Assembly (NCBI GenBank): GCA_037142615.1
Contig: JBAXAI010000037.1
Coordinates: 1-37,211 of the forward strand
DNA from: Spirochaetales bacterium
GTDB taxonomy: Bacteria > Spirochaetota > Spirochaetia > JABEVK01
Direction of reading: 5' to 3'
DNA length: 37,211 nucleotides
Positions 2,242 through 37,211 of the stretch are shown here, piece after piece. The notes under the pieces were generated by a model. That model saw only the letters and a program-made list of their open reading frames with translations, searched no databases and was not told the origin of the DNA. Position numbers and translations under genes: made by a program. Every line of letters starts with the position of its first letter. The first letter of the stretch is position 1.

Positions 2242-4041
2242 ATGGTAGTTTCGGGCGGTAGAACCCGGCGAAGTTTCCTCCTTGCCCTCTGTTGGCTCGG
2301 CCTTGCCATGCCGCTTTCCGGCCAGGAAAGGACCCTCGGCATAGGACTCTCGGTGCTGAGTGCCGCCGAACTGGCAGCCGTCGACGGCCCGACGCTCGTG
2401 TTCCAGCCTTTGGAAGCGCCGATGACGGTGACGGTCAACGGCGCGGTGGCAAAACGGACCGGCCATCAGGCTAGTCCGTATTCCAGCCGTCTGCACTGGG
2501 CCATTTTCGTGTCGTTGGAGCCCTTCGTCGTCCCGTCGCAGGACCTGAAGGTCGAGATCACACTGACGCCGGACCTCGGCGAGAGAGCCGTTCTGGGCCC
2601 GGTAAGGTTGGTCTCCCGGGACGTCGCTTCCGACCTGGTCTTCTGGCGCAACTTCTGGGGCCCTCAGGGCCTCACGGCGCTCGCCTGGGCCTCGATGGTC
2701 GTGGGTTTCTTCTCTCTGCTGGTGTACCACCTGGGTAGGGGGCTTCCTGAAAGGGAACGGAATCGGTACCTGGTGTATTTCTTCCTCACGCTGGCCTTCG
2801 CTCTTTCTTACGTCAACAATGTCCTCTCCTGGGATCTGGCTCCGACGCTGCTGCTGGAGAAGGTGTCCAGAGTCTCGATGTACTGTTGGTTCTTTTGCGC
2901 CCTTGTCGCCAACGTCGTATTCCTTCGGCCTGGCTCCGGCCCCGACCGGCGCTGGATCGCTGCTGCTGCGGCTTTTCTGGTCCCGACGGTTCTGGTGGTC
3001 TTGAGTCCGACTCTGGGGGAGGCGAACTCCTGGCACCATTTGATCGGACTGCCTCTCATGGGTCTTGCCCTCGCCCTGGTCCTTGGTCGCTCGCTGTATT
3101 GGGCCTTCAGGGCGGGTGACTGGCAGGCCTGGGTTCTCGCCGCCTTTTACCTGGCGGCTGCCGGGGCCTCTGCGGTCGATGACTGGCCGATCTACGCGCT
3201 GAGGTACAAACCTGGGGTCCTGCTGGCACCCTACGTCAATTTCTTTTCAGACTTGGCGTTCCTATGGCTGCTGGCCCACGACTTCAACGCCCGGTCCGAA
3301 ATGGCCCGCCGTCGGACCCTCGAGCTACAGACTCTGACCTCCACCTTGGAGGACCAAGTGAACGTCCGGACTTCGGAGTTGACTGAAGCCCATCACAACC
3401 TGCAATTCTTCGTTTCGGTGCTGGCCCACGACCTTCGCAATCAGGTCCACGGGTTGTCTCTTCTCGGGACTGAGACCGCCGAGGTGGTCAGGGCCACCAA
3501 CGCCGAGCCCAAAGTGGTCCGGCTGATCGACCTGATTCGGGAGTCCTCTTTGGCCACCGGTCAACAGCTCGAGAGCCTCTTGCTCTGGTCCCAGGTCAGG
3601 CTGGGACTGGTCAAGCCGGTAACAGGCCCCGAGGCGGCCGCTGACCTGCTCGGGGCCGTGGCCGCCGAGTTCCGGCCCCAGGCCCTCGCCCGGACTCTGA
3701 ACCTCACGGTCGATTCGGACGCCGAACTGGTGGTGCGGTGCGACCGCGAAATGGTCACGACCATCCTGCGGAACCTCGTGGCCAATTCGATCCGCATGAC
3801 CCCCCTCGGTGGCACCGTTTCCCTCCGGGCGGAATGGAGCGCCACAGAGATCCTCCTCTCAGTGATCGACACCGGACCGGGCTGGACGACCTCTCACGGC
3901 CCCAATTCAGGGTTCGGTCTCCAGATTGTCCGGGCCTTGGCCGAAGCCCAGGGGTTTTCCGTCGAGACGACTTCGCACCCAGGAAAGGGGACGCGCGTGG
4001 ACCTCAAGGTACCGAGGTCGAAGCCGCGCCTCGACCCCTGA
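2242..4041 (+). CDS. Membrane sensor histidine kinase (extracellular domain, ~7 TM, HisKA, HATPase)
   Basis: AGGAGG RBS at 2230-2235, signal-like N-terminus, multiple hydrophobic segments, H-box LAHDLRN, N-box ILRNLVANS, G1 DTGPG, G2 GFGL. Divergent from the response regulator. Confidence 0.88.
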   Translation: MVVSGGRTRRSFLLALCWLGLAMPLSGQERTLGIGLSVLSAAELAAVDGPTLVFQPLEAPMTVTVNGAVAKRTGHQASPYSSRLHWAIFVSLEPFVVPSQDLKVEITLTPDLGERAVLGPVRLVSRDVASDLVFWRNFWGPQGLTALAWASMVVGFFSLLVYHLGRGLPERERNRYLVYFFLTLAFALSYVNNVLSWDLAPTLLLEKVSRVSMYCWFFCALVANVVFLRPGSGPDRRWIAAAAAFLVPTVLVVLSPTLGEANSWHHLIGLPLMGLALALVLGRSLYWAFRAGDWQAWVLAAFYLAAAGASAVDDWPIYALRYKPGVLLAPYVNFFSDLAFLWLLAHDFNARSEMARRRTLELQTLTSTLEDQVNVRTSELTEAHHNLQFFVSVLAHDLRNQVHGLSLLGTETAEVVRATNAEPKVVRLIDLIRESSLATGQQLESLLLWSQVRLGLVKPVTGPEAAADLLGAVAAEFRPQALARTLNLTVDSDAELVVRCDREMVTTILRNLVANSIRMTPLGGTVSLRAEWSATEILLSVIDTGPGWTTSHGPNSGFGLQIVRALAEAQGFSVETTSHPGKGTRVDLKVPRSKPRLDP

Positions 4042-4342
4042 GGTTTCGGCAATCTCGGCGGCAGGTACGCCTCTGTCCTTCAGTCTCTGGGCGACATTGT
4101 GCAGCTGTCTGAGGCCGCCGGTCACTTCGCCTCGGGCCTCGCCAATAGCCTCACCTTCCCGCAGGGCCTCGGCTCTGACGCTTACGTAATCGTGGTGCTC
4201 CATAGATTGTCGGATCTCGTTGTAAACTTCAGGGGTAAGCTGCATATAGGCCTCCATCCGCTTCTTGGCAGAATCAAGCATCGCGATCAGTTCGGCCGAG
4301 CCGCTGGAAGCTCTGGTATCGGGTTTCTCTAAGAATCTGCCC

Positions 4343-4396
4343 GGCGACGGCCCGCTGGGCCTTACGCCCTCAGTTTCCGGACAGGCCCGAAAACTG
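4343..4396 (+). repeat. Double-hairpin REP-like element (copy inside Rpn pseudogene)
   Basis: GGCGACG-gccc gct gggc-CTTACGCC, then CAGTTTCCGGACAGGCCCGAAAACTG. Confidence 0.85.
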
Positions 4397-4582
4397 CAAA
4401 TGGTGCAACCTTGGGACCAAGTAGATTCTGCCCCGGATCGGGTAGGCGCGGCAAGCCAGTATGAGGAAGGCGAAAGTGATGCAACCACGGACCTTTCTTG
4501 GTGATCTCGTACTCAAGAAAATTGAGCGAAATGACCGGTTTCAGCGTACTGTAGTTTTCGCCTACGGGGAGCTGACGGGCGT

Positions 4583-4637
4583 GGCGACGCCGCTTCGCGT
4601 CTTACGCCCGCAGTTTTCGGACAGGTCCGAAAACTGC
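4583..4637 (+). repeat. Double-hairpin REP-like element (copy inside Rpn pseudogene)
   Basis: GGCGACG-ccgcttcgcgt-CTTACGCC, then a perfect 12-bp stem GCAGTTTTCGGA-cagg-TCCGAAAACTGC. Confidence 0.85.
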
Positions 4638-4811
4638 AACGAGTTGAGTTGCGGGTGGTTTGAACCTCGACGGTGACGATGCGACCGGTTTCATCTTCCG
4701 CCAGAATATCGACAAGGGCAATCTTTTCGCCGTCGTGGTCTGGTGCGAGTTCGCGGGGCTGGAGCTGCAACTTGTGGACCAGCGGAAGGCCGACGGCCTC
4801 GAAATGGGCAT

Positions 4812-4866
4812 GGCCACGGCGCGCTGCGCCTTAGGCCCACAGTTTCCGGGCAAGCCCGAAAACTGT
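4812..4866 (+). repeat. Double-hairpin REP-like element (copy inside Rpn pseudogene)
   Basis: GGCCACG-gcgc gct gcgc-CTTAGGCC, then ACAGTTTCCGGGCAAGCCCGAAAACTGT. Confidence 0.85.
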
Positions 4867-5064
4867 CCTTCTGTGCGTTCTAGCCCCTTGCGGCGAGTAC
4901 TGTCCTTGGTCAGTACGGCACAGTGGTACCTCGAGGTACCAGAAAGGGGAAGGGCGCGTTTTGCTTGCGGTTTGGGCGAGAAAACTTGCGGATTCTGTCG
5001 GAAGGGGCGCCTGCCCCTCACTCCAGCCTCGTCGAATCGGCAATACACAAATGGGGCAATGCGT

Positions 5065-5117
5065 GGAGTTTTCGCCTCGCGAAAACTCCGGGCGTAAGGT
5101 GCGCCAGCACCGTCGCC
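5065..5117 (-). repeat. Double-hairpin REP-like element, reverse orientation, just downstream of the intact Rpn stop
   Basis: GGAGTTTTCGC ctc GCGAAAACTCC, then GGCGTAAG-gtgc gcca gcac-CGTCGCC. Confidence 0.85.
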
Positions 5118-5128
5118 GGGGTCTTCCG

Positions 5129-5347
5129 CTACCCCCTCTTGTGGGTTGCCCTTTGGTCGTTGAGCTTCGTCACCTCAGCCAGGGGAAGCCCAGTCAATTC
5201 GGCGACTTCGGCCACGCTCATGCCACGAGCCAGGAGCGCGGTCGCGACTTCGGCCTTGGCCTCGCGGTAGCCCTCGCCTCTGACGCTGACATAATCATGG
5301 TGCTCCATGGACTCGTGGATCTCTCTGTAGACTTCAGGTTCCAGCAT
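5129..5347 (-). CDS. Predicted internally initiated small C-terminal Rpn protein (RpnS-like), 72 aa
   Basis: In-frame ATG preceded by GGAGG (GGAGG-cgtacctg-ATG). The paralogue also has GGAGG-cctat-ATG at 4245. Confidence 0.55.
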   Translation of the reverse strand: MLEPEVYREIHESMEHHDYVSVRGEGYREAKAEVATALLARGMSVAEVAELTGLPLAEVTKLNDQRATHKRG

Positions 5348-5953
5348 CAGGTACGCCTCCATCCGTTGCTTTGCGGCGCCGAGCAGAGCAACCAAATCGG
5401 CAGGGCCGTTGGCTGGGCTCGTCTCGGGCTTCTCTAGGAATCTGCCCCAAATTGCCGCCTTTTTCAACAGAGCACGACTGCCCGGCGAACGCAGGAGTTT
5501 AGGAAGTTCTACGAAGATGAACCCCAGATGAGCTGTTTGCGGCAGCCGAAAGTGATGCAGCCACGGCCCTTTCCTCGAGATTTCATACTCGAGAAAGTTG
5601 AGCGAAATAACCGGCTTCAGGGTCGTATAGTCCTCGCCTTTTGGGAGCTGGCGCGCAAACAACCTGGCCCAGTAGAACAAGGCTCTTTCGAAATACGCAG
5701 GCTTGCGTGTCGTTTGCACCTCGACGTTCACGGTCCGTCCCGTCTCGTCTTGGGCAAGAATATCAAGGATGGCGAGTTTTTCGCCGTCGTGGGTCGGTGG
5801 CAAATCGCGGGGCTGGAGCTGCAGCTTGTGGACGAGCGGAAGGCCAACGGCCTCGAAATGGGCGTTGACCAGGCTTTCCAGCAAGGGTATTCCTTCGGGT
5901 TCGCCGAAGACGTGCAGGAAGACGGAATCGTGGGTAAGCGGGGAGTAGGGCAT
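5129..5953 (-). CDS. Rpn family recombination-promoting nuclease/putative transposase (PD-(D/E)XK), 274 aa
   Basis: MPYSPLTHDSVFLHVFG N-terminus, LDILAQDETGRTVNVEVQ catalytic motif, ERALFYWARL, KPVISLNFL, FIFVELPK, and a C-terminal ALLARGMSVAEVAELTGL helix. The longer ORF-track start at 6178 runs through a terminator. Confidence 0.92.
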   Translation of the reverse strand: MPYSPLTHDSVFLHVFGEPEGIPLLESLVNAHFEAVGLPLVHKLQLQPRDLPPTHDGEKLAILDILAQDETGRTVNVEVQTTRKPAYFERALFYWARLFARQLPKGEDYTTLKPVISLNFLEYEISRKGPWLHHFRLPQTAHLGFIFVELPKLLRSPGSRALLKKAAIWGRFLEKPETSPANGPADLVALLGAAKQRMEAYLMLEPEVYREIHESMEHHDYVSVRGEGYREAKAEVATALLARGMSVAEVAELTGLPLAEVTKLNDQRATHKRG

Positions 5954-6056
5954 TTGGTACCTCTGAGGTACAAGACGGGGGAATTGGGCGGTTTGCTTGC
6001 GGCTGGGGCAAGAAATCGTGCGGATTCTGTCAGACGGGGCGCCTGCCCCTCGTTCC

Positions 6057-6097
6057 ATAACAAAAAGCCGACCCTTGGCGGGCCGGCCTTTTGTTAT
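6057..6097. terminator. Probable bidirectional intrinsic terminator
   Basis: ATAACAAAAAGCCGACCC-ttggc-GGGCCGGCCTTTTGTTAT: GC stem with A/T tracts on both sides. Confidence 0.8.
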
Positions 6098-6160
6098 TGC
6101 ACTACCCCCTCTGGGTGGTTTTCCTCTGGCTTTGGAGTTTCTCCACTTCGGGTAATCTAC

Positions 6161-6325
6161 TTCCATTGTTGGATACACGAGTCTAGCAGCGGCTTCCCGA
6201 AACCCAAGTGGATCGTTCCATTGGTGGCAATTCGGAAGGCTGTCGGTTCACTGAGCGAACTCGACAAAGCGGTGATCGACCCACTCCACGGTGATTATAG
6301 CATCCTGATGGGCAAGGACAACGAC
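6161..6325. repeat. Direct repeat copy 1 (3' end and downstream region of the DUF4258-like gene)
   Basis: Aligns with 7943-8108; 6210-6271 is identical to 7993-8054. The minus strand encodes VVVVLAHQDAIITVEWVDHRFVEFAQ*. Confidence 0.9.
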
Positions 6326-6600
6326 TACGCACGGACGCTGTTCGCTTGGCCCGGGTTTGCCCCGTCGCACCGGCAAACCACGCGGGGGGAAGTTCTCGCG
6401 GTTGGCGAACTGGGCTTTGCCGACGGCGCCAACTTGGCGCAGCTGTGGCAGCGGGTGCGCGAGCTCGGCCTGCACCTGGGCCCGGCCTGGCGGCTGGTGT
6501 ACCTCGACCAGTCCGAAGAGGTGGAGATCGAGCGCCATAAGGCACCCCGGGGTTCGATCACCGTGCTTTCACCGCGACCTTCCGACGCGGTGGTAGCGGC
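6320..6600 (+). pseudogene. Internal fragment of a conserved hypothetical protein
   Basis: NDYARTLFAWPGF..LAVGELGFADGANLAQLWQRVRELGLHL..RLVYLDQ..HKAPRGSITVLS has coding-like codon usage but no proper start; it is fused to the repeat copy. Confidence 0.45.
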
Positions 6601-36378: not shown

Positions 36379-36423
36379 GGGGCTAAGGTAAACCAGAATC
36401 CCCGGGTTGAAAAGGCGTGTCCC

Positions 36424-36605
36424 GGCCACGCCGCACTGCGGCTTAGGCCCGGAGTTTCGAACTCCGTTCGAAACTCCACCGAAGTACCCATTCCATTACG
36501 GTTCTTGGCGTGGCCACGTTCAGCTGGTGTCGCAAGGGTTCACCCGCGGACAGTTTTCGGGCACAGCCCGGAAACTGTGGGGCTAAGGAACGAAGTGACG
36601 TGCCC
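36424..36605. repeat. Two REP-like elements in opposite orientation
   Basis: 36424-36477: GGCCACG..CTTAGGCC plus hairpin. 36550-36605: hairpin plus GGGCTAAG..CGTGCCC. Confidence 0.85.
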
Positions 36606-36616
36606 GGTCTCCTACG

Positions 36617-37211
36617 GGGTTCCGCTTTCCCGCCGCACGAAGTGAGGCGGGAAGAGCCCGCTTCGCGGCCCTCCGTCCACCTCACGCAACATCGTGGAAG
36701 GCCTAGGTGGCGGGTCGCGGGCTCAGCCCGGGACCTGCAGGCGTAAGGAGGCCAACGGCCGACGTCGCCAAGCTCCTTTCGCAACTCCGGTGTGGCCCAG
36801 GTGGCAGTTTTCGGCGGTAGCCGGAAACTGCAGGCGTAAGCCAGCCGTAGGCTGGCGTCGCCAAGCTCCTCACGCAACATCGTGGAGGGCCTAGGTGGCA
36901 GGTCGCGGGCGCAGCCCGGGACCTGCAGGCGTAAGCCAGCCTTAGGCTGGCGTCGCCGGGTTCCGCTTTCCCGCCGCACGAAGTGAGGCGGGAAGAGCCC
37001 GCTTCGCGGCCCTCCGTCCACCTCACGCAACATCGTGGAAGGCCTAGGTGGCGGGTCGCGGGCTCAGCCCGGGACCTGCAGGCGTAAGGAGGCCAACGGC
37101 CGACGTCGCCAAGCTCCTTTCGCAACTCCGGTGTGGCCCAGGTGGCAGTTTTCGGCGGTAGCCGGAAACTGCAGGCGTAAGCCAGCCGTAGGCTGGCGTC
37201 GCCAAGCTCCT
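36617..37211. repeat. Higher-order tandem array (341-bp period) of ~90-bp REP-like units, running off the window end
   Basis: 36617-36870 is identical to 36958-37211. Subunits at 36681, 36776, 36869, 37022 and 37117 each end in GGCGTAAG..CGTCGCC. Confidence 0.92.

Follow-up and report, generated by a model that had tools for sequence, protein, structure and literature searches.

Results

The locus and its Rpn-family genes

The window, that is, the whole stretch of 37,211 nucleotides analysed here, carries an intact Rpn-family gene of 274 amino acids (5129..5953) and, beside it on the same reverse strand, a broken Rpn-family (TIGR01784/PF12784) paralogue (4042..4811) recognised by blastn, tblastn and paralogue alignment. 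The intact gene, which served as the empty-site reference, scores 90.6 bits against TIGR01784 (cut-off 52.1) over model positions 1-272 and 106.7 bits against PF12784, in agreement with an earlier note on this DNA that took the broken host gene for an Rpn paralogue; a Pfam search gave the intact neighbour no match to PF04754, the E. coli Rpn family, at E ≤ 0.001. The pseudogene matches its intact neighbour at 41% over residues 30-256 (tblastn), is frameshifted at three places, and is abutted at its truncated 3′ end by a histidine-kinase gene. Its kept coding blocks (4167-4342, 4459-4574 and 4649-4809) are stop-free, with dN/dS values of 0.155, 0.063 and 0.119 against the intact neighbour, so that inactivation is recent relative to paralogue divergence, and purifying selection acted on the gene until recently. 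About 20 Rpn-family paralogues are encoded in the genome, and one of them (contig C3) carries KAEG three times in the region matching the E. coli repeat region, where paralogue lengths vary. Excerpts of the published account describe E. coli Rpn as a toxic endonuclease whose gene encodes a C-terminal antitoxin internally and carries variable repeats of four residues (PMC10400941).

Comparison of positions 4000-5130 with 5100-6100 by blastn gave four homology blocks: 4167-4342 with 5272-5447 (74.6%), 4459-4574 with 5535-5650 (79.3%), 4649-4809 with 5703-5863 (81.5%), and 4924-5019 with 5955-6051 (84.8%). The last of these (4924..5019, reverse strand) is a conserved 5′ leader and promoter region of Rpn paralogues, with a GGTACCTCGAGGTACC palindrome beside the start, and is common to the loci on contigs C55, C36 and C59. 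Homology had been described as stopping at inserted elements, and blastn places the breaks at 4343, 4575-4583 and 4810-4812; each of the three gaps holds one 54-nt element on the forward strand, made up of two adjacent hairpins. Folded as single-stranded DNA, elements E1, E2 and E3 gave energies of -11.8, -17.1 and -16.3 kcal/mol and z-scores of -1.6, -4.4 and -3.6, respectively (the E1 fold used 4343-4395, one base short). Three copies in 520 bp is far above the genome density of about 65 full-length copies in 4.27 Mb.

Elements and their junctions

E1 (4343..4396, forward strand, antisense to the gene; 71.3 bits with the R1 covariance model) lies inside the Trp codon of AIW|GRF. The eight paralogues that cover this site (nine aligned) read ctgccc|caaat(g/t)g or a close variant, and the pseudogene reads ctgccc, the 54 nucleotides, then caaatgg. 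E1 is therefore an exact insertion in which no target base is duplicated and whose borders have no room to shift, as had been claimed from the sequence. Read in the direction of the gene, E1 keeps the frame and has no stop codon; the approximately 55 nt that come next are poorly alignable and fall 25 nt short of their length in the paralogues.

At E2 (4583..4636, forward strand, antisense to the gene; 74.1 bits), a 74-nt stretch (4575-4648) stands in place of 52 nt of the intact gene (5651-5702), which belong to the 18 codons that separate VEVQTTR from QLP (the KPAYFERALFYWARLFAR stretch). E2 with 2 and 12 unmatched flanking nucleotides thus replaces approximately 52 nt encoding the helix after VEVQTTR, a net gain of 22 nt and a frameshift. 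For each of E1 and E2, the 8-9 aligned paralogues covering the site lack the element. Hairpin 1 of E2 equals L033:1504-1529 of another species in the genus at 26 of 26 nt by eye, while the search reported 95% over 38 nt.

E3 (4812..4865, forward strand) scores 76.2 bits, the same as a copy at C69:2374-2427 to which it is identical and which stands immediately upstream of the ATG in an intact paralogue, with the conserved leader on its other side. The identical stretch extends to 71 nt (C69:2368-2438), and the flanks are 75-82% identical. A 57-nt tail 3′ of E3 (4866..4922, forward strand), with a GTACTG/CAGTAC stem, is common only to the C69 locus; its first 11 nt are identical and the remainder approximately 75%. 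At C69 the insertion in the leader measures 112 nt. In the pseudogene, E3 adjoins a loss of approximately 88 nt (codons 2-31), a deletion between two GGGC(A/G)T repeats. Judged from these matching junctions, E3 is not an independent insertion into coding DNA. Deletions of coding sequence had been proposed beside both E2 and E3, and both losses are there, but E3 was not inserted at its own; the three copies show 76-85% pairwise identity, and the identity of E3 with the C69 copy speaks against counting E3 among three independent events, as had been proposed.

A fourth element, E4 (5064..5117, reverse strand), belongs to a different subfamily with a GGAGTTTTCGC stem and, in sense orientation, follows the intact gene's TAG stop by 11 nt. 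Homologues with conserved flanks follow the stops of paralogues on contigs C44 and C5, and in another genome of the genus (G001:C163) an Rpn gene is followed, at a distance of 68 nt, by a sense-oriented copy.

The genome is a 76-contig metagenome-assembled genome with 2.24% estimated contamination, and misassembly was a concern. Logan contigs of four runs from four studies cover the junctions with 0 differences: 3700-4612 and 4587-4975 (run X1), 4459-4771, bridging E2 (X4), 4187-4403, bridging E1, and 4596-4854 (X5), and 4001-4612 (X8). No element-skipping joint occurs among the Logan contigs of these runs, which hold the filled form only and, since Logan contigs drop rare variants, could miss empty alleles; the elements had been called actively mobile, a claim to which this result lends nothing. 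Logan contigs break inside E2 and E3. Between species, relatives are too distant for an orthologous empty site to be compared at the junctions: the best, G001, is approximately 75% identical in the kinase gene, and the G001 DNA compared has no Rpn gene after the kinase.

Further filled and empty sites

A survey of other pseudogenes for the same insertions had been suggested in the earlier note, and two further clean pairs of filled and empty sites were found. In a second Rpn pseudogene, C5:80535-80588 is an exact insertion relative to gagc|ggcaccc of the paralogues, without a target-site duplication (TSD) and with a 3-nt GGC ambiguity at its borders. A decayed duplicate of the ftsK 3′ end on contig C72, 91% identical to its intact twin, holds four element copies, of which C72:336-393 is a 58-nt insertion without a TSD relative to agct|ggaac on contig C74. 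The copy at C72:546-605, as at E2, replaces host sequence and is not a clean insertion. A paralogue-based search for empty sites, run over all 65 copies, turned up nothing beyond the Rpn loci, C72/C74 and duplicated arrays. What inserts is a discrete unit that begins and ends with the outer bases of the two hairpins, without target duplication and without a visible shared target motif: the five defined left flanks (TGCCC, TGAGC, GTTCC, GGCAT and TGCTG) have no tetranucleotide in common.

A genus-specific family of two-hairpin repeats

The elements form a REP/BIME-like family of 53-58 nt with two adjacent hairpins, specific to one genus. The R1 covariance model was built on 27 aligned copies; hairpin 1 has the consensus GGCSAC-[variable stem-loop]-CTTASGCC and hairpin 2 CAGTTTYCGG-loop-CCGRAAACTG. 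Paired cells make up 89.5% in the alignment vs. 74.8% in shuffles, 12 of 19 pairs are changed on both sides with covariation in both hairpins, and the covariation score is 0.337 vs. 0.095 (0 of 500 shuffles as high, slid registers all ≤0.06). DNA-fold z-scores range from -1.6 to -5.3 across the folded copies. The model gave 94 matches at E ≤ 1 in the source genome (G000), where counting full-length copies as matches of at least 26 bits gives about 65 in 36 clusters. At E ≤ 1e-5 there are 58 matches in G000 and 9, 2, 7 and 32 in G001, G002, G003 and G004, so that the element is present in 5/5 genomes of this genus of freshwater spirochaetes and in 0/26 outside it. A 20-nt core pattern gave six scattered single matches in 185,579 species genomes, in unrelated members and within chance. 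Rfam gave no match at E ≤ 10 in 3500-6500, and none at gathering score in the window plus four loci. Hairpin 1 is kept to the base between species whose MetG proteins are only 72-87% identical.

The best matches of E1 and E2 in the assembly are 82-85% identical, and a near-identical source copy was not found there. E1 and E2 are mutual nearest relatives, only 82% alike and with compensated differences in their stems, on which grounds simple local copying within the pseudogene was rejected as their origin. With dN/dS of approximately 0.1 in the host gene, decay in place cannot account for the gap between them.

A Pfam survey of cluster-flanking frames (224 of 253 fragments sent) placed 27 of the 36 clusters between genes and four beside Rpn genes outside the coding sequence; for three of these 31 non-coding clusters, 5′ UTR and N-terminal coding sequence are indistinguishable. 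Three clusters fall within broken genes, two are without an annotated neighbour, and intact domains contain none. Apart from such broken copies the family keeps outside genes, and it accumulates in DNA that lost function, much as the proposal of a pile-up in dispensable genes had it. The strand bias proposed with it is not seen at the level of the contig: the 37-kb window contig carries 7 forward and 12 reverse copies, and GC skew (<0.03 absolute) gives too little signal for replichores to be assigned. Of 29 pairs of adjacent copies, 22 have the same orientation, a number that tandem duplications on C30, C21 and C37:36706-37204 inflate, and there are six convergent doublets. Among the 19 Rpn loci checked for nearby elements, five have one within 150 nt and none has elements on both sides; copies before the gene (C69, C43) have antisense and those after it sense orientation, so that hairpin 1 faces the gene at both ends.

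A RAYT-like HUH candidate

The sole HUH candidate in the genome is a RAYT-like Y1 transposase with a single intact copy (C3:49512-50027); PF01797 is found at only two loci, one of them decayed. The intact gene scores 77.9 bits against NF047646 (REP-associated tyrosine transposase; cut-off 80), approximately 2 bits short, and only 21.1 bits against the IS200 model NF033573. Its translation shows the HUH (HFH) and Tyr motifs, and a PDB sequence search with the protein gave no relevant match. We searched the flanks of intact RAYT-like genes (six loci in five genomes) with the covariance model with filters off, inverted-repeat scans and a degenerate motif scan, and found no significant R1 element (best 10 bits); 3′ of the G000 gene there are only two degenerate GGCGAC...TT(A/G)CGC motifs.

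RAYT-like relatives occur in 5/5 genus genomes, and no single RAYT lineage is common to all element-bearing genomes. Those of G003 and G004 are only 45-48% identical, though MetG is 83% identical in G003. G004, whose RAYT relative is only distant, nevertheless contains 32 matches and a copy with exactly the hairpin 1 of E2, and G002 has an 82% orthologue but only two elements. RAYT relatives are also found in 8 of 26 element-free genomes outside the genus.

Discussion

The locus is a useful natural record of insertions of a known repeat type. We think it likely that insertions of the genus-specific, REP/BIME-like two-hairpin repeat, together with deletions, broke the gene, and that the repeat would have moved by HUH catalysis. 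Breakage would have comprised a clean insertion (E1), an insertion plus a loss of approximately 50 nt (E2), and an 88-nt deletion between the GGGC(A/G)T repeats that fused codon 31 to a pre-existing E3, which would already have separated the ribosome-binding site from the ATG, the arrangement that C69 still shows. A tyrosine HUH enzyme may move the pieces in single-stranded form, new copies may land preferentially near existing ones, and the hairpins may promote adjacent deletions by replication slippage. Several points weigh against parts of this account: the left flanks without a common tetranucleotide stand apart from IS200/IS605 targets, the lack of a near-identical source copy for E1 and E2 speaks against local spread, and the unflanked RAYT-like gene, its score below the cut-off and a distribution of RAYT relatives that does not follow that of the elements speak against its link to the repeat.

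A recently inactivated gene and a recent partial duplicate that each carry three to four copies suggest that insertion is concentrated in local hot spots and is not uniform. They also lend support, through the dN/dS of approximately 0.1 in the Rpn pseudogene with its three copies and the 91% identity of the ftsK duplicate with its four, to a bolder reading that we advance only tentatively, since we think it may well be wrong: that the repeat seeds beside its own copies, keeps their orientation and shreds freshly dispensable genes fast, with hairpin-adjacent deletions finishing the destruction.

Several other accounts were weighed against the likely course of insertions and deletions. Spread without a dedicated HUH transposase, by hairpin template switching, break repair or another enzyme acting in trans, would explain why insertions at E2 and C72:546-605 are accompanied by loss of host sequence, and it fits the missing target motif, the missing REPtron arrangement, the co-orientation of adjacent copies (inflated as that count is by tandem duplications) and the CGTC-class REPs that, in excerpts of their description, flank no tyrosine transposase gene, though such genes are present (PMC3733652). 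Three base-exact insertions with ends at the hairpin feet fit enzymatic cut-and-join better than repair, and the conservation of hairpin 1 across species suggests a protein recognition site; we regard this account as unlikely. It is less likely still that the hairpins are native parts of the Rpn unit (leader, trailer or mobile-unit ends) spread by gene duplication and conversion. The shared position and 71-nt identity of E3 with the C69 locus, the E4-type copies after the stops of the C37, C44 and C5:77440 paralogues and of the G001 Rpn gene, the facing of hairpin 1 towards the gene from upstream and downstream, and the five of 19 Rpn loci with a nearby element all speak for such an origin. 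E1 and E2 are nevertheless missing from the aligned paralogues, no Rpn gene is bracketed, at least 27 clusters lack a nearby Rpn gene, and the same elements riddle the ftsK duplicate. G003 and G004 (the latter only 80% complete) carry 7 and 32 matches without a TIGR01784 match, and excerpts of the E. coli report describe rpn genes as without inverted repeats and TSDs (PMC10400941). Finally, chimeric joins at repeats during assembly or binning would be conceivable from the contig number, the estimated contamination and the Logan contigs that end inside E2 and E3, but four runs bridge each junction without a difference or an element-skipping joint, and we give this account hardly any credence.

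Among known systems, the closest are the REP/BIME/REPIN repeats and RAYT genes of Enterobacteria and Pseudomonas, compared here with excerpts of their descriptions (PMC3116915, PMC3337134, PMC3479197). Shared features are a short imperfect hairpin, rich in G+C and asymmetric in its internal loop, a copy number in the tens, with copies mostly extragenic, often just past stop codons and clustered, some convergent doublets, a single-copy RAYT-like Y1 gene, and a vertical, lineage-restricted distribution. In contrast, the spirochaete unit consists of two different hairpins and not of one palindrome or inverted pair, its consensus (27 copies) is without an unpaired GTAG tag, the RAYT-like gene is unbracketed, and clusters are mostly direct, not alternating. 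CGTC-tagged REPs are reported in Spirochaetes among five phyla (Di Nocera et al. 2013, PMC3733652); in excerpts of that report they have an 8-9 bp stem starting with A-T pairs, a 4-5 nt loop, a CCA tail and an unpaired CGTC. Here, comparing by description, CGTC (the reverse complement within GGCGACG, 14 of 27 copies) instead lies inside hairpin 1. The same excerpts report REPs inside ORFs in some species, sometimes two in one ORF (PMC3733652), and the description of our locus as a rare view of the mechanism was accordingly overstated.

A CRISPR array was considered and rejected, as the stretches between elements are collinear pieces of one gene and not unrelated spacers. The recombination boxes of an integron attC site run in the order AAC...GTT; hairpin 2 has GTT on its 5′ side and AAC on its 3′ side, the reverse order, and that reading was also rejected. 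Terminator and intron readings were rejected on anatomy.

Palindromic elements of Rickettsia (RPEs) are tolerated in frame in expressed proteins, and the target of IS608 is TTAC. Excerpts on RPEs (PMC3733652) describe palindromic repeats in protein-coding genes, which the in-frame, stop-free 54 nt of E1 resemble, whereas three frameshifts break this host gene, and none of the genome's intact genes contains a copy. With miniature derivatives of the IS200/IS605 family (IS608, ISDra2), as described in excerpts of PMC6006769, our elements share the missing TSD, hairpins at both ends and a Y1 HUH candidate. They differ in end hairpins that are mutually dissimilar and flush with the termini, not subterminal, in having no conserved 4-5-nt target 5′ of the insertions (n=5) and no orientation bias along the contig, and in a genome in which no IS200-type TnpA is present.

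The insertion mode of REP-type repeats is still more inferred than observed, and this genome provides three base-exact comparisons of filled and empty sites, which identify a pair of hairpins, its ends flush with the stems, as the mobile unit. There is hardly any description of such families from the Spirochaetota, the phylum of this one, in which the repeats do not flank the RAYT-like gene. For annotation, it explains many contig breaks and intergenic repeats in the genus. If the repeat does seed beside its own copies, the genome would hold a rare natural series of base-exact sites that could settle how REPs insert. It would also suggest a gain for the host from silencing nuclease paralogues that, by analogy with E. 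coli, may be toxic; at the intact C69 paralogue one copy separates the ribosome-binding site from the ATG.

Three hairpin elements in a decayed Rpn gene

The genome to which the window belongs comprises 76 contigs (4.27 Mb, 61% G+C), and the public runs containing this stretch are labelled as freshwater and lake metagenomes. An intact Rpn-family gene of 274 aa (5129-5953, minus strand) matches TIGR01784, titled 'Rpn family recombination-promoting nuclease/putative transposase' (90.6 bits, cut-off 52.1), and Pfam PDDEXK_2 (106.7 bits). Directly downstream on the same strand lies a broken paralogue (4042-4811), in which blastn recovers three coding blocks (4167-4342, 4459-4574 and 4649-4809, aligned to 5272-5447, 5535-5650 and 5703-5863 of the intact gene) and a leader block (4924-5019 versus 5955-6051). 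As proposed in an earlier note, the homology gaps each contain one 54-nt element on the plus strand: E1 (4343-4396), E2 (4583-4636) and E3 (4812-4865). The structure is not an assembly artefact, since independently built contigs from four runs of four studies bridge every junction with 0 differences and none skips any element.

The intact gene is itself followed, 11 nt past its stop, by a fourth element, E4 (5064-5117, minus strand). Contigs in all four runs also join 5034 to 5116-5119 (window 5034-5119) via a different 26-28-nt hairpin, GC(A/G)GGCGA...TCGCC(T/A)GCC, which replaces the 81-84 nt that contain E4. They probably represent other copies of the paralogue, in which case E4 itself would be an insertion or replacement relative to them. 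A third Rpn paralogue survives as its last ~25 codons only (6096-6178, minus strand; region 6055-6095), followed by a terminator-like hairpin, aaaaagccgacccttggcgggccggcctttt, directly upstream of the intact gene's leader. The locus is thus a tandem array in decay, comparable to the three copies on contig C55.

In the pseudogene, the antitoxin-like C-terminal part remains a single open frame of 193 codons (3907-4488, minus strand), which reads through E1, has lost its native stop, enters the end of a histidine-kinase gene in antisense and may still give rise to a stand-alone antitoxin-like product. This region of the Rpn paralogues (alignment columns ~100-250) varies in length and carries four-residue repeats, such as KAEG three times in the paralogue on contig C3 (L001:85-900), which match the hypervariable repeat of the Rpn antitoxin domain described for E. 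coli and Leptospira in the sections of PMC10400941 used here.

Insertion junctions and history

The retained coding blocks contain no stops and show dN/dS of 0.155, 0.063 and 0.119 against the intact neighbour, at dS of 0.8-1.4, so purifying selection acted for nearly all of the divergence and the death of the gene was recent. At the E1 site, the sequence in the eight aligned paralogues that cover it is ...ctgccc|caaat(g/t)g or a near variant; in the pseudogene exactly 54 nt separate the two halves, beginning with the first G of hairpin 1 and ending with the last G of hairpin 2. The paralogue alignment shows no duplicated base and borders that cannot be shifted, which bears out the proposed insertion without target-site duplication (TSD). 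E1 splits a Trp codon in frame and without a stop; the frame is lost anyway, as the ~55 nt that follow are poorly aligned and 25 nt short. Elsewhere in the genome, a copy at C5:80535-80588 sits between gagc and ggcaccc of its paralogues with a 3-nt GGC border ambiguity, and at C72:336-393, 58 nt have been inserted where the C74 sequence joins agct to ggaac, with borders one base beyond the hairpins on each side. E2 is not clean: 74 nt replace 52 nt of the intact gene (5651-5702, part of the 18 codons that separate VEVQTTR from QLP), with two unmatched bases on one side, 12 on the other, and a shifted frame. No target motif is common to the five defined insertion sites.

Mutual identity among E1, E2 and E3 is 76-85% and their differences are compensated stem changes, so they already differed in sequence on arrival. 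This speaks for E1 and E2 having inserted in separate events, and the assembly holds no near-identical source copy of either. The independence proposed for all three does not extend to E3, whose identical counterpart lies in an intact paralogue on contig C69, within a 71-nt patch that is identical between the two loci and has flanks of 75-82% identity. In C69, the patch and a 57-nt tail stand exactly between the ATG and the conserved leader, where no other paralogue in the alignment has an insert. The pseudogene has E3, tail and leader as in C69, but lacks ~88 nt between GGGC(A/G)T (codon 31) and the start-codon GGGCAT. On the simplest account of its history, E3 would already have been in the leader when a deletion occurred between these two short repeats. 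The perfect patch suggests that the loci have recently exchanged sequence or that the element is strongly constrained. The C69 insert separates a GAGG-type ribosome-binding site from the ATG and may thereby silence the full-length protein.

A mosaic element family confined to one genus

All four elements share a plan in which hairpin 1 (GGCSAC, a variable inner stem-loop, CTTASGCC) is followed by one or two bases and then hairpin 2 (CAGTTTYCGG, loop, CCGRAAACTG). In an alignment of 27 of the ~30 genome copies found by nhmmer, 89.5% of paired cells were complementary versus 74.8% after shuffling, both sides had changed in 12 of 19 pairs, and the covariation score was 0.337 versus 0.095 in shuffles, a value reached by 0 of 500; slid registers scored at most 0.06 each. 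A covariance model of this alignment gave 94 genome matches at E≤1, of which 65 of at least 26 bits were retained as full-length after removal of opposite-strand half-matches to the palindromic hairpin 2. These copies fall into 36 clusters. The earlier note's reading of a mobile hairpin repeat is right in its core. Its present activity, also claimed in the earlier note, is unproven: contigs of the four runs never skip an element.

The family's range is this genus alone: all four other genomes of the genus contain it (9, 2, 7 and 32 matches at E≤1e-5), none of 26 genomes from other genera of the class does, and a core-pattern scan of 185,579 species genomes returned 6 stray matches only. No Rfam family matches the element. 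Arrays mix the two-hairpin unit with other short conserved modules and, in another species of the genus, different hairpins flank hairpin 2; the family is therefore mosaic, like BIMEs. Tandem arrays with periods of ~140 and 341 nt lie at contig ends (window 36423-37204; C21:1-400; C30:43200-43646), where the unit is combined with modules such as CCGCGGGTTxACCGxTxCGACACCAGCTGAACGTGGCC, and probably cause many of the assembly's breaks.

Genomic distribution and orientation

We translated the stop-to-stop frames touching each cluster and scanned 224 of 253 fragments against Pfam; the other 29 comprised pseudogene fragments already analysed and alternative frames on C72, C74 and C69, together with two bad references and four fragments, of which three were at 15 kb and one was at 13.6 kb. 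Most clusters (27 of 36) are intergenic, commonly 5-30 nt from a stop codon and frequently next to genes of toxin-antitoxin systems or Uma2; in three of the 27 the copy falls in an N-terminal stretch of a frame that has no domain, where 5′ UTR and coding sequence are indistinguishable. Four clusters adjoin Rpn genes outside the coding sequence, two have no annotated neighbour and three lie inside broken genes, while no copy was found in an intact domain among the fragments scanned, in agreement with the suggested accumulation in dispensable DNA. Besides the window pseudogene, the broken genes are a second Rpn pseudogene on C5 (one copy) and, on C72, a partial duplicate of the 3′ end of ftsK that has decayed; four copies lie within this duplicate or at its edge, and another follows its stop. 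The intact ftsK twin on C74 (86-95% identity in shared blocks) lacks the C72 copies. Three copies and three deletions within ~800 bp of Rpn pseudogene sequence that has only lately become neutral, and four copies in the ftsK duplicate, far exceed the prediction from 65 copies per 4.27 Mb, which argues for local hot spots over uniform insertion.

Exact 55-nt overlaps (C72:1-55 with C74:3151-3205; C72:147-201 with C74:1-55) suggest that C72 and C74 are neighbours in the assembly graph, in which case C72 would be a diverged segmental duplicate of C74 carrying the ftsK 3′ end and toxin-antitoxin genes. A 5′-truncated IS110-family transposase frame with the Transposase_20 domain only (L053:2389-2835, C14) adjoins one element copy, and an incomplete Uma2 frame (profile positions 94-139 of 172; L054:865-1006, C20) lies ~40 nt from another; both may be additional examples of genes broken at element sites.

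Without exception, the eight copies that lie within broken genes or at their edges run antisense to the host gene, but this carries little weight because they represent three loci and clusters are orientation-coherent anyway. Adjacent pairs share orientation in 22 of 29 cases, a count inflated by tandem duplications on C30, C21 and C37:36706-37204, and six of the seven opposite pairs are convergent. The window contig (C37) carries 7 plus-strand and 12 minus-strand copies, a tally of copies downstream of genes shows no clear preference for sense or antisense, and GC skew is too weak to place the replichores; the HUH-type strand bias previously proposed is therefore unsupported.

Candidate mover and relation to known repeats

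Exact insertion without TSD fits the chemistry of IS200/IS605 and RAYT enzymes. Y1 (HUH) transposase genes number two in the genome: an intact one (C3:49512-50027) and a decayed copy on C5. Against the NCBIfam model for REP-associated tyrosine transposases (cut-off 80) the intact gene scores 77.9 bits, and against IS200 it scores 21 bits. All five genomes of the genus contain relatives of it; the C3 gene is the only evident candidate mover. Several observations count against it: no elements flank the RAYT-like gene at the six loci examined; the relatives in G003 and G004 are only 45-48% identical, with MetG 83% identical in G003, yet G004 has many copies and a hairpin 1 that matches E2's exactly; G002, with an 82% RAYT, has two copies, so that copy number does not track a close orthologue; and the insertion sites share no motif. 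Rpn genes, for their part, are not required by the elements, given that G003 and G004 contain elements without any TIGR01784 match and that no Rpn gene is bracketed by elements on both sides.

At both of its loci (C3, L001/L038, 48-51.5 kb; C5, L002, 80-82 kb), the RAYT-like gene immediately precedes an Rpn paralogue. On C3 it neighbours a BrnT-like toxin gene and a reverse-transcriptase fragment with a YVDD motif, and on C5 the decayed RAYT frame is fused to BrnT-like toxin-type sequence.

The family works like REP/BIME repeats but lacks the REPtron arrangement and GTAG tag of the classical REP system. The portions of Di Nocera et al. (PMC3733652) consulted describe REPs within ORFs, including two in one ORF, and a CGTC class that occurs in Spirochaetes and lacks flanking transposase genes; our comparison is with these text descriptions, and the present family may or may not be among those listed there. 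In E. coli, according to the portions of Zhong et al. (PMC10400941) consulted, Rpn proteins act as toxic endonucleases and have an intragenic antitoxin, and rpn genes lack inverted repeats and TSDs; by analogy with this toxicity, 'dispensable or toxic target' would be a fair reading of the host gene. The family has value as a natural series of insertions.
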